A stretch of 25,229 nucleotides of DNA from Leptolyngbyaceae cyanobacterium (GTDB lineage Bacteria > Cyanobacteriota > Cyanobacteriia > Phormidesmidales > Phormidesmidaceae): the NCBI GenBank assembly GCA_050331235.1, contig JBHJHA010000106.1, positions 1-25,229 of the forward strand, given 5' to 3'. Of the stretch, positions 21,829 through 25,229 are shown one piece after another (positions within the stretch are counted from its first letter, which is position 1; every line of letters starts with the position of its first letter). The position numbers and the translations under genes are program-made. The notes under the pieces were generated by a model. The model did not search any database and was not told the origin of the DNA. It saw nothing but the letters and a program-made list of their open reading frames with translations.

Positions 21829-24489
21829 ATGCTGCGCATTCGGCGCTTGCACAAATTTTTTGGTCCCAAGCGGGTTGCTTTTTTAGAAGCCTGCATCATT
21901 GGCGTTGTTTCGGGATTGGCAGCGGTAGCGCTGAAACAAAGTGTTGAAATTCTCACGGAATGGCGTCTGACGAGTACCCTGCCGACTTGGCTACTGTTGC
22001 CATCGGTGGGGTTTGTGGGGGGGATTATTTCGGGCTGGCTGTTGGAACGGGTTGCTCCAGAAGCGATTGGCAGCGGCATTCCTAAAGTCAAAGCGGCCTT
22101 GGCTTACGTTGATATTCCCTTAAATTTACGGGTGGCCTTAGCAAAGCTGAGCAGCACGATTTTGGCGTTAGGCAGCGGATTGTCGCTTGGTCGCCAGGGC
22201 CCAACTGTACAAATTGGAGCTGCCCTGGCTGCTCAGTTGAGCCAGTGGGTGCCGACTTCACCGGAATACCGTCGCCAACTGATTGCTGCTGGGGCAGCGG
22301 CGGGATTAGCCGCTGGGTTCAACGCTCCGATCGCCGGCGTCCTCTTTGTGGTAGAGGAGCTCCTCCAAGATTTTTCTAACTTGACGTTGGGAACGGCGAT
22401 CCTAGCGTCGTTTGTTGGGGCAGTGGTGTCTCGCCTGTTAGGGGGGCAGGGACTCAATCTGAGTAACTATGGCATGTTGCAAACGGGGCTTTCGGTGCAG
22501 GATTTGCCCTTTTTAGTACTGCTGGGCATTCTTGCCGGTGTCTTTGGGGGGATCTTTAGCCAAGGGGTTTTTGCCAGCCTGAACTTCTTTCAGCAAATGA
22601 AGACGATCAGCCTGCCTCTGCGTATTGGTTTGGCAGGGGGATTGACCGGGTTGGTGGGCATCGTGCTGCCGATCGCCGCCCAAGATAACACCGGGCTGCG
22701 GGAATTTTTGGTGACTGGCAGTGCTGCCTGGAGTGTGATCGCGATCGCCTTTGTCGTCAAATTTGCGCTGACGCTCGTGGCCTATGGATCAGGGGCTTCG
22801 GGCGGGTTGTTTGCGCCCGCGCTAGTGCTAGGGTCAGCCTTGGGATGTCTGGTCAGTTTTTTGGCGCAGGCCAGCCACGGCTGGTTTGGGCTACCAGTGG
22901 ATACGTTGGCCAGTAGCAACACAACCACCTATGCCTTGACCGGGATGGGTGCCTTTTTTAGCGCGGTGGCGCGGGGGCCCATTACCGCCATCGTCATTGT
23001 TTTTGAGATGACGGCAAATTTTAATCTGGTGCTACCGTTGATGATTGGCTCAGGACTGGCCTACCTCATCAGCGACAAAATCTCGGCGGGGTCGATCTAT
23101 GACCGGCTGCTGACCTTTCAGGGCATTCAGCTCACGGTGAATCCTTCGGAGGCAAATCCCTGGGCTGATCTGACAGCGGCGGATTTGATGCAGCGCCGAG
23201 TTGAGACCCTGTCTGCTACGATGACTATCGCTGAGGCCGTGGAAGCCTTTTCGCGATCGCACCATCGTGGCTTTCCCGTGCTGGCCCAGGGCAAACTGGT
23301 GGGCATTGTGACCCAGACCGATTTGGGCGAAAAATCACAAACCACTGCAAGCAGTCGCCTATTGCGGGACATCATGACGCCACATCCGGTGACAGTGACC
23401 CCCGAGTCTTCCCTCCCTCACGTGCTCGACCTGCTCAATCGCCTGAAAGTGAGTCGTATTCCAGTGACGGATGGCAACAAGCTGGTCGGCATTATCACGC
23501 GAGGAGATATTATCCGTGCGGAGTCTGAGCGTCTGAGCGGCAAAATGACCGAAGCGGGACCCGCCACAACCCCTTCCTGCGGCATTTATCGAATGCGTGC
23601 CCCGGCCACTGGTCGGGGCCGGCTACTGGTGCCGCTGAGTGATCCAGAGACGGCACCACTTCTACTAAATATGGCGATCGCGATCGCCCGCCAAGAGCAA
23701 TACGAGTTGGAATGTATTCACGTGGTTGTGGTTTCTCGGTCGATTCCCCCTGAGGAAGCGGCGGTTGATCTGACGTTTAGTCGGCAGTTGCTGAGTTTGG
23801 CCCAGCAGCGAGTCCAAAATTCCAAAGTGCCCTTGCATACGCAGATTCGGGTGGCCCACGACGTCGCCACAACACTGTTAGAAGTCATCAAAAAGCGCCA
23901 CATTGACAAAGTGCTGCTAGGGTGGCGGCGTCCCAACCATACGCCAGGGCGCCTAGTCGGCAAGGTTGTTGACACGCTGCTACGGCAAGCGCCCTGTCCA
24001 GTGATTGTGGTCAAACCTGGACGGGTAGAACAGCTCAACCACTGGCTATTGCCCTCTGCCGGTGGCCCAAACTCTAAGCTGGCCTTGCAGCTCATGCCGG
24101 CGTTGATGACCTTGGGTCATAACCCGCAGTTGTCGCTCTGCGCGATCGCTGCCACTGCCGAGCAGCAGCCACAGCTCAAAAAACAACTTTTGCGTCGAGC
24201 TACCTTTTTAGAACGGCGTCTTCACGTACCGGTCAAAACTCAAATGACTGTCCATGAAGACGTCGCTATGGCCATTGTCGAACTATGCCACTACCACCAA
24301 ATCGATGTGATCGTTTTAGGCGCGAGCCGTGAGGGGCTCTTTAGTCATGTGATCAAGGGCAATATTCCTCTGGAGGTGGCGTATCGCAGTTCGGCAACGG
24401 TGATTTTAGTGCAGCACAACTCGGTGAATGCTGAGCCAGCGCGTCTATTAAGTCGTGATGAAACCATTGATCCTGTACCCCGGACCTAG
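21829..24489 (+). CDS. ClC chloride channel/transporter with CBS pair and two USP domains
   Basis: GSGIP, GRQGP, FNAPIAGVLFVVEEL, GGLFAP, SIY. CBS motifs HHRGFPV and KLVGIITRGD. USP motifs LLVPL...CPVIVVK and VIVLGASREG. Confidence 0.93.
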   Translation: MLRIRRLHKFFGPKRVAFLEACIIGVVSGLAAVALKQSVEILTEWRLTSTLPTWLLLPSVGFVGGIISGWLLERVAPEAIGSGIPKVKAALAYVDIPLNLRVALAKLSSTILALGSGLSLGRQGPTVQIGAALAAQLSQWVPTSPEYRRQLIAAGAAAGLAAGFNAPIAGVLFVVEELLQDFSNLTLGTAILASFVGAVVSRLLGGQGLNLSNYGMLQTGLSVQDLPFLVLLGILAGVFGGIFSQGVFASLNFFQQMKTISLPLRIGLAGGLTGLVGIVLPIAAQDNTGLREFLVTGSAAWSVIAIAFVVKFALTLVAYGSGASGGLFAPALVLGSALGCLVSFLAQASHGWFGLPVDTLASSNTTTYALTGMGAFFSAVARGPITAIVIVFEMTANFNLVLPLMIGSGLAYLISDKISAGSIYDRLLTFQGIQLTVNPSEANPWADLTAADLMQRRVETLSATMTIAEAVEAFSRSHHRGFPVLAQGKLVGIVTQTDLGEKSQTTASSRLLRDIMTPHPVTVTPESSLPHVLDLLNRLKVSRIPVTDGNKLVGIITRGDIIRAESERLSGKMTEAGPATTPSCGIYRMRAPATGRGRLLVPLSDPETAPLLLNMAIAIARQEQYELECIHVVVVSRSIPPEEAAVDLTFSRQLLSLAQQRVQNSKVPLHTQIRVAHDVATTLLEVIKKRHIDKVLLGWRRPNHTPGRLVGKVVDTLLRQAPCPVIVVKPGRVEQLNHWLLPSAGGPNSKLALQLMPALMTLGHNPQLSLCAIAATAEQQPQLKKQLLRRATFLERRLHVPVKTQMTVHEDVAMAIVELCHYHQIDVIVLGASREGLFSHVIKGNIPLEVAYRSSATVILVQHNSVNAEPARLLSRDETIDPVPRT

Positions 24490-24967
24490 GAGCTACTTCT
24501 CATGGCAAAATTGCTCCGTTGCCTGCATAGCAAACGTTGCATGACCACAGTATAGATCTCAAAAAAGTAGGCTCATCACTCGCCCCGACCAGCAGTTTGA
24601 ACCGATTCTTAGAGGCTATGACCTCTGCGAGGTCCAGAACGGCCGCTTGTCCTAGTCGAGGGGGTGTGGAAAATCGAAATCTTCCGCTGATAAGTTAGCT
24701 GTGGTGTCGCGCTCATACCACTCATGCGCTACAGAACTCCTGTGCTCGTCTCAAACTTCGGTTTTGAAGGAAAAGTTGGAATTCTTAAAATTTTCTCATA
24801 ACTCCCTCAGACCCACTTCAGTTCAGCCGCGTTTAGTAGAGATGGTGTTGGTCAAGTACCAAGGCCCATCGAAATTAAAGCTTCGAGATCGCGCCCTCCG
24901 GTCATTGCTAGAGGCGAGCTGCTCTAAGTATTGAGCTACTTACACTGCTGTTTTTCTACTGAGTCCC

Positions 24968-25123
24968 ATGCAAATTAAGTATCTAACCGCATTTGTTGCT
25001 TCTGCTGTATTGTCTGTTGGTGTTGCGTCTTTGCCGACTGTATTGAGCTCTGCCCAGGCGAATCCTTGTGCGGCAGCCGTTGAAAATCCCTGTGCGGCCA
25101 AACCTTGTGCGGCCAAACCATGA
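24968..25123 (+). CDS. Small secreted Cys-repeat protein ([N/K]PCAA repeats); the literal frame ends at TGA 25121 but the repeat continues
   Basis: Not in the ORF track. Manual translation: MQIKYLTAFVASAVLSVGVASLPTVLSSAQA|NPCAAAVENPCAAKPCAAKP*. Sec-pathway signal peptide with an AQA cleavage site. Candidate -10 TACACT at 24941-24946. Confidence 0.8.
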   Translation: MQIKYLTAFVASAVLSVGVASLPTVLSSAQANPCAAAVENPCAAKPCAAKP

Positions 25124-25159
25124 GCGGCCAAACCTTGAGAGGCCAATAACTGAGCGGCA
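25085..25159 (+). repeat. 15-bp coding tandem repeat (about 5 units)
   Basis: Units aatccctgtgcggcc / aaaccttgtgcggcc / aaaccatgagcggcc / aaaccttgagaggcc / aataactgagcggca, plus an earlier copy at 25061-25075. Confidence 0.9.
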
Positions 25160-25229
25160 CAACAAGAAGAGACAAATAAAGATCAGGCAAAAAAATAAGA
25201 GAGCGGAAAGTAACAGCAAGAAAAAAAAA

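Follow-up and report, generated by a model that had tools for sequence, protein, structure and literature searches.

The end of the window, the 25,229-nucleotide stretch analysed here and the whole of contig C106 of genome G000, holds the front of a gene whose signal peptide leads into an arm of cysteine-containing (N/D)PCA(A/G) repeats, and a piece at the end of contig C57 that encodes further repeats and a YHS domain is almost certainly the rest of the same gene (Table 1). Comparison with relatives suggests that, on balance, the arm is an unmodified, inducible thiol scavenger of the cell envelope carried on an exported YHS protein. The lone peptide that first drew attention is an assembly artefact, and its value lies in the context of a portable poly-cysteine arm that occurs across several phyla, for which no model or description was found, and which breaks assemblies and is sometimes annotated as antisense.

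Table 1 Features of the repeat gene in the window and beyond it
Feature	Position	Strand	Basis
Direct-repeat box, TTCTCA-like half-sites, 11-bp period	24781..24813	+	EM motif, putative OmpR-type site
5′ part of the signal peptide, Cys-repeat and YHS gene	24968..25229	+	
Predicted Sec signal peptide, 31 codons ending A-Q-A	24968..25060	+	hydropathy, AxA motif, conservation
Arm of cysteine repeats, first three (N/D/K)PCAA units	25061..25114	+	translated frame
Decayed contig end, copying further repeat units with errors	25115..25229	+	A drift; missing cover
Off-window remainder of the YHS gene	G000:C57 49998-49405	minus	

The preliminary description had placed a gene start at 24968, followed by a 31-residue signal peptide ending in A-Q-A, and this start is real. 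Residues 1–31, judged by eye, comprise a basic N-region (K4), a hydrophobic core with an 11-residue Kyte–Doolittle mean of up to 2.27 and the A-Q-A before NPC; A31 reaches at least 90% conservation across 99 homologues, and M1 and the lysine-rich start are also kept (alignment A1). The N-terminal 39 aa share 85–92% identity with three congeners, and a fourth shares 72% over 36 aa. Because the 51-aa piece that precedes the first stop was matched in 30 of 61 genomes (own included) and in 12 of 13 congeners, the gene is not a chance frame, and the described order of signal peptide and then Cys repeats is likewise kept in homologues. Relatives include Leptolyngbya, Halomicronema and unclassified cyanobacteria. 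As had also been noted, the open reading frame list, with its threshold of 60 aa, holds only antisense shadows at this locus. After the signal peptide come NPCAA, a short spacer, NPCAA and KPCAA. The repeat had been written as (N/K)PCAA: its three PCAA units stand, whereas the K of the third may be a miscall, since KPCAA accounts for 6 of about 1000 units in homologues, against 352 for NPCAA and 198 for DPCAA, and contigs of run X1 (independent Logan contigs of the probable source sample) support the arm's first units exactly to 25074 only.

The frame shuts after 51 codons, and the single open reading frame proposed for 24968..25198 does not exist: TGA codons at 25121, 25136 and 25151 interrupt it, and 25198 closes a TAA at 25196. 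The last ~115 bases of the window are read-end error, not real stops, as follows from an A drift and from missing cover. From 25115 onwards the 15-bp register persists while successive units deviate at 2, 2, 4, 9, 8 and 8 positions, and A makes up 28 of the 33 deviations (binomial p 1.5e-9, with the three alternatives taken as equally likely). This contig end is the most A-rich among 236; the C57 end ties for second and shows a mirror decay, with A at 13 of 15 deviations. Run X1 matched the window exactly to 25074 and placed only mismatching repeat pieces on 25085–25144 (8 differences in 60), and positions 25146–25229 had no cover in four runs. That the TGA codons are real, as the end of a truncated 51-aa gene or as selenocysteine read-through, might be proposed because they fall exactly at the Cys positions of the repeat and because the YHS family includes selenoproteins. 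We give this reading hardly any weight, the lowest of those considered: a change of TGT or TGC to TGA is the same A drift, C57 encodes the YHS cysteine with TGT and none of the top 19 relative matches contains an internal stop. The in-frame TGA is accompanied neither by tRNA-Sec, which was not found among 36 assembled tRNAs (genome 95.5% complete), nor by SelA, which was over its cut-off in 0 of 21 genomes. Read-through and a true 51-aa peptide were both set aside on this evidence.

A six-frame motif scan of the genome's contigs for PCAA arrays returned only two other real arrays, one in a small lipoprotein on C18 and one at the end of C57, where an open minus-strand frame of 197 codons without a start encodes repeats and then a YHS domain. 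The C57 half scored 162.7 bits against NF041384 (cut-off 70; profile positions 2–113) and 40.7 bits against PF04945, comparable with 157.7 bits against NF041384 for the intact relative P0001. Its GGYC motif agrees with the GxC/GxU signature of NF041384, and the cysteine of G-Y-C (C188) is invariant in 99 sequences. Seventeen of 19 relative loci encode a signal peptide, (N/D)PCA(A/G) repeats and a YHS domain in one intact gene of 204–334 aa; the remaining two comprise one with DM13 in place of YHS and one broken in the repeats by a contig end. The six genes after the YHS domain on C57 keep their order in 4 of 4 congeners examined, and this order is absent from two loci of other genera. Both flanking contigs have a depth of 11.6 in run X1, whose C57-side contig matches exactly up to the repeats. 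From the facing degraded ends, the equal depth, the intact orthologues and the synteny we infer that the two pieces are one gene, no contig spanning the gap, and that it would encode a putatively exported protein of roughly 230–330 residues, its number of units here left undefined by the gap. The idea of a short stand-alone peptide therefore gives way to that of the front end of a larger YHS protein broken by an assembly gap. This bears out the alternative that had been offered, the low-complexity N-terminus of a larger periplasmic metal or redox protein, and extension of the contig, which had been advised, leads to the continuation on C57. An ECF sigma/anti-sigma pair lies ~4 kb downstream on C57 and is syntenic in 4 congeners; it was set aside as part of the system because the two loci of other genera do not have it. 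Upstream of the YHS gene, the window encodes a chloride channel with CBS and two Usp domains (21829-24489), a gene that was not syntenic with the YHS gene in 6 of 6 relative loci.

Close homologues are named YHS domain-containing (seleno)protein in databases. The YHS/NF041384 family already has a name, and the literature passages available assign it no established function. Members share the G-Y-C motif, with GxU in the Sec forms (PMC13188914, passages available); the window protein differs in having Cys rather than Sec and in the added long N-terminal (N/D)PCA(A/G) arm. In an AlphaFold2 model of P0001, built with 99 sequences, pLDDT was mostly below 50 at residues 1–108 and mostly at least 90 at 112–250, and the arm is accordingly predicted to be disordered. 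Among solved structures, phmmer with the YHS protein gave 0 matches and the best profile match was a segment of axonemal adenylate kinase 9; the best VIA-align result had Z 7.7 over 59 residues. No close solved relative was found in these searches, which barely covered residues 202–250. In the ESM Atlas, matches of the arm reached at most 0.80 and were uninformative, and the YHS domain matched YHS clusters.

The arm behaves as a portable module. No Pfam or NCBIfam model covers the (N/D)PCA(A/G) repeats, the 51-aa piece hit no family at E 0.1, and literature searches for NPCAA and variant spellings of the motif returned only unrelated matches. Among 401 genomes from the phylum, 24 match the repeat pattern, two of which have no repeat ORF, and a reversed control matched once; loci L039 and L046, pattern matches without a repeat ORF, and L068, L071, L073 and L075, weak matches in which no repeat was found, were dropped from the counts. 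Among 56 script-counted entries, in which one gene is counted twice across a gap and some near-identical ones are merged, the arm is joined to YHS in 29, thioredoxin in 6 and DM13 in 3, stands alone in about 14–15 and is cut by a contig end in 3. It is present in 109 of 119 YHS homologues, with 4–21 units at a spacing of mainly 5 or 6, and is missing from the other 10; the 25 listed of 84 plasmid matches cover the domain only. Its P-C-A core persists from phylum to phylum and on domains that are unrelated. A cupin whose HNH...H motif we take to resemble that of thiol dioxygenases lies beside about 22 of about 55 repeat loci (a hand count, with 8 from one genus); an FGE-fold lipoprotein adjoins repeat genes in 7 loci, and other recurrent neighbours are CcdA/DsbD at thioredoxin fusions, DUF4079 and a sensor kinase. 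In the genome under study, C18 carries a complete 73-aa DPCAA-repeat lipoprotein (L022:6914-7132, minus strand), a free form of the arm. A one-genome-per-species scan for KNPCA(A/G) gave at least 125 loci, 80 of them with long flanks; outside cyanobacteria the arm sits on SoxA/TsdA-like cytochromes (53 of the 125 loci listed) and on P460-type proteins, and the neighbours in the same 125 include DUF6969 (34), YeeE (16) and multihaem cytochromes (12). Three more assemblies break inside the repeat (L003, L035 and L074), so such genes are probably under-annotated.

A signal peptide followed by Cys repeats is also what a precursor modified by an MNIO (DUF692) enzyme would look like, and the preliminary description had proposed such a precursor of the HvfA kind. 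We regard this bufferin or oxazolin reading as very improbable, and the genomic evidence speaks against it. PF05114, the MNIO family, was not detected in any of the 14 genomes of the genus, the window's own among them, and turned up in 1 of 61 relatives, where no repeat peptide lies within 3.8 kb of the MNIO gene. Among further repeat-bearing cyanobacteria, 1 of 20 has an MNIO, about 757 kb from its repeat genes; DUF2063 gave 0 matches in the genome under study (95.5% complete), and the DUF692 neighbour that had been suggested as a check lies beside none of the cyanobacterial repeat genes examined. Downstream of the YHS gene on C57 and in four congeners there is no maturase. Although hydropathy, the AxA motif and conservation point to an N-terminal Sec signal, as in bufferins and oxazolins, the best BufA2 score was 16.3 (cut-off 60), on a DM13-fused relative, and no DUF2282, BufA2 or EGKCG signature was found, the repeat motif here being different from EGKCG; judged by these profiles, the window gene is not a bufferin or oxazolin. 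A survey of MNIO substrates mentions neither NPC, YHS nor cyanobacteria in the part of its main text available (PMC12452194).

Two points remain on the side of an MNIO substrate: DoxX-like genes follow a repeat lipoprotein on two plasmids, and tblastn with one MNIO query on the 80 long-flank loci matched 1, L153, the only one of the 125 loci listed with such an operon. There (L153:3276-5573), an alphaproteobacterial NPCAAK lipoprotein directly precedes BufA1-like, MNIO, DUF2063-like and DoxX-like genes. This is the one setting in which the arm might serve as an MNIO substrate; by eye, however, the operon has its own BufA1-like precursor between the peptide and the MNIO. On a Thalassobaculum plasmid (L266:4938-9501) an armless YHS gene of NF041384 heads a DUF2282–DUF692–DoxX–sigma–NrsF cluster, so that arm alone and YHS protein alone each head a bufferin-type operon. 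In one cyanobacterium (G023, a genome with 5% contamination), MNIO and DUF2063-like genes follow the gene for a 472-aa protein whose tail is rich in Cys and Gly (L029:44-3160), an arrangement that is rare in these cyanobacteria. Bufferin operons are part of a copper-stress regulon (PMC11626156, passages available). Like the predicted product of the window gene, bufferins and Buf_EGKCG/oxazolins (HvfA) are Sec-exported Cys products of a stress regulon with variable repeats and sometimes an adjacent DoxX (PMC11626156 and PMC12452194, passages available); the window gene differs in having no MNIO or DUF2063, another motif, a fused folded domain and, it appears, a two-component box rather than SigF/NrsF. 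If the cysteines indeed act unmodified, the arm would be an enzyme-free counterpart of the bufferins, with bare cysteines doing the work of thiooxazoles. The Cys-every-fifth RiPP CefA (NF038108) was also considered and rejected: it scored 12.9 bits (cut-off 30) on the degraded C57 end, and the genome's one SPASM gene, on C14, has no such peptide in 3.2 kb.

Modification of the exported repeats by a co-regulated enzyme other than an MNIO, giving a RiPP-like product, is an improbable but better-placed alternative, for which the FGE-sulfatase-fold lipoprotein is the most plausible enzyme. In the 7 loci noted above, this protein, with two invariant cysteines, is encoded directly upstream of a free repeat lipoprotein, and the genome under study carries one on C31. 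Against this, it adjoins neither repeat gene here, it scores far below the EgtB, SenA and PvdO cut-offs, and the arm is joined to several folded domains without a visible cleavage motif. Its cysteines are presumably not placed like the copper-binding pair of true FGE. On C31 (L080:4721-6348) the gene is divergent from an HNH...H cupin gene; neither had an NCBIfam family over cut-off, and the pair flanks repeat genes elsewhere.

The promoters of the repeat genes share a sequence box. EM on the 330 bases upstream of 46 repeat genes, many of whose promoters are kin, yielded TTCTCAG-like half-sites with an 11-bp period (log-likelihood 306 versus 82 for shuffled sequence), present in 41 of the 46 promoters at a posterior of at least 0.8; the sites in the window lie at 24781 (16.2 bits) and 24792 (11.7 bits). 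The box is likely to be an OmpR-type response-regulator site, and the repeat genes quite probably form a shared regulon. At 14 bits the genome-wide count was no higher than for column-shuffled motifs (41 versus 13–46), so the regulon list holds chance matches; at 18 bits it was 7 versus 2–5. The best boxes precede the C18 lipoprotein (21.9 bits, the best in the genome), AhpC/TSA, the divergent ArsS and kinase–regulator operons, genes for a further YHS protein and a DsbA-like one, DM13, EgtD and two rhodaneses; some top boxes precede the non-thiol genes for adenylate cyclase and two cellulose-synthase-like proteins. The latter (L087:1254-3494 and L093:542-2812) have a homologue after the YHS gene in L043-L045. 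On C11, a box precedes consecutive genes for rhodanese, TauE, sulfur-transferase-like and metallo-beta-lactamase-fold proteins, possibly a sulfur-detoxification operon (L097:3-3279). Box-matched genes on C6 and C19 had been labelled fasciclins, a label dropped because Pfam and NCBIfam gave no family. A sigma-70 scan gave a single weak site, which overlaps the box and is no better than chance. No RNA dataset holding this DNA was listed, which has no bearing on its expression.

A held-out test used the promoters of kinase orthologues from the best 30 of 51 matches (one family, own included): 28 of the 30 genomes reached at least 12 bits, compared with 47 of 2657 background promoters. Because the kinase promoters carry the box, which is likely to reflect autoregulation, the kinase–regulator pair is its likely owner. 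In the genome under study the operon lies on C80 (L081:3912-8190), divergent from ArsS (TIGR04167 above cut-off) and two VTT-domain genes, with boxes on both strands, an arrangement kept in most relatives examined. The kinase falls below all NCBIfam cut-offs (best TIGR01386, 215.9 versus 292.55), and the conserved residues of its outer domain include Met and a single Cys, a composition compatible with the sensing of soft metals or oxidants. CopMRS of Synechocystis PCC 6803 likewise combines a two-component system, direct-repeat boxes and an envelope metal-binding protein, with a CopR box of TTCAT-N4-5-TTCAT (PMC4182526, passages available), unlike the CTCA(G/T) at an 11-bp period here. The kinase sensor region matched 8 plasmid records, none of Synechocystis, in a collection that may lack its copS plasmid, and the available part of PMC4335983 does not contain the box. 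Tentatively, and with rather less confidence than in the shared box, we propose an undescribed cyanobacterial envelope thiol-defence regulon that would comprise the kinase, the CTCAG box, the portable poly-cysteine arm and ArsS, DsbA-like, peroxiredoxin-like, FGE-fold and cupin partners.

On the scavenger reading, the sensor kinase would detect a thiol-reactive insult through its Met/Cys outer domain, and the response regulator would bind the box and induce the gene together with other envelope thiol proteins. After export, the arm cysteines would take up a soft metal or metalloid, such as Cu(I), Hg or As(III), or be oxidized sacrificially. Resetting them would fall to thioredoxin/CcdA- or DsbA-like proteins or to the cysteine that is invariant in YHS (GYC, with Sec in its place in other bacteria); metal binding by unmodified cysteines is plausible. 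A number of units that varies from 4 to 21 suits a bulk titrant more than a defined product, and the occurrence of the arm on thioredoxin, DM13 or YHS or free, with CcdA/DsbD by the thioredoxin fusions, the thiol genes behind the box (AhpC/TSA, ArsS, DsbA-like, rhodaneses and the repeat lipoprotein) and the separate bufferin-type operons of arm and YHS (L153, L266) point the same way. Against it, many YHS homologues lack the arm, the kinase is wider than the repeat genes (48 of 61 genomes), several box matches are not thiol genes and the context outside cyanobacteria leans to sulfur. A further likeness is one of logic alone, with no homology implied: in the MrpX–YedY (MsrP) system of Azospira suillum, an inducible periplasmic Met-rich peptide of low complexity scavenges hypochlorite sacrificially and is recycled by a reductase (PMC4436054, passages available), whereas the arm is Cys-rich and its recycling would proceed by thioredoxin/CcdA. 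If the proposed thiol-defence regulon is real, it would be the first functional setting for the YHS/NF041384 family.

The sulfur context speaks for a rival to which we give much less weight, that the arm is a sulfur or selenium carrier whose cysteines, somewhat like the SoxY arm, pass sulfane sulfur to the attached domain: the YHS cysteine, thioredoxin or, in other phyla, a SoxA-like haem. The SoxA/TsdA-like fusions and YeeE-type transporters in the loci listed, the boxes ahead of rhodaneses (in one case with TauE and sulfur-transferase-like genes next), the recurrent HNH...H cupin and the Sec variants of the YHS family (PMC13188914; PMC1976440, passages available) would fit. Yet a carrier needs one arm rather than a variable 4–21 units, the free lipoproteins lack a catalytic domain, and no sulfur-induction data were found; the available part of the Sideroxydans irc cluster paper mentions no cysteine repeat (bioRxiv 2025.02.27.639646). 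That the arm is merely a spacer, or a disulfide-cross-linking tether placing the YHS domain in the envelope, fits its predicted disorder, its variable length and the armless homologues, but a P-C-A core kept across phyla and unrelated domains and a stand-alone arm gene under the same box make this an improbable reading. The scavenger thus ranks first, followed by the carrier, then by spacer and non-MNIO substrate at the same level, the MNIO product and, last, real stops.

The box and the candidate kinase–regulator pair make the regulon testable in PCC 7002, whose plasmid pAQ7 carries the cupin, kinase (G0159) and regulator (G0158) genes and, divergently, a 93-aa repeat lipoprotein and a DoxX-like gene, with boxes between. 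By gene order and its length of 279 bases the peptide appears to be the old tag G0161, which had 0–7 reads per library (PMC4628125, passages available) and a ratio of 0 at 22 °C, 30 °C, glycerol, oxidative stress, low salt, 1.5 M NaCl and heat shock (PMC3468840, passages available); unique mapping could undercount a repeat gene, and the neighbour G0162 is also near silent. Near silence is as expected of an inducible scavenger gene, whereas the absence of induction by the tabulated oxidative, salt and temperature treatments counts against one, and the inducing signal is probably none of those tabulated. No transcriptome rows for the PCC 7002 repeat genes stand in the available part of PMC9426444, searches for the locus tags returned nothing, and no copper, arsenic, mercury or sulfur induction datasets were found. 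At this locus (L262:2875-3188), RefSeq lists an antisense shadow, WP_156785491.1, in place of the 93-aa repeat lipoprotein.
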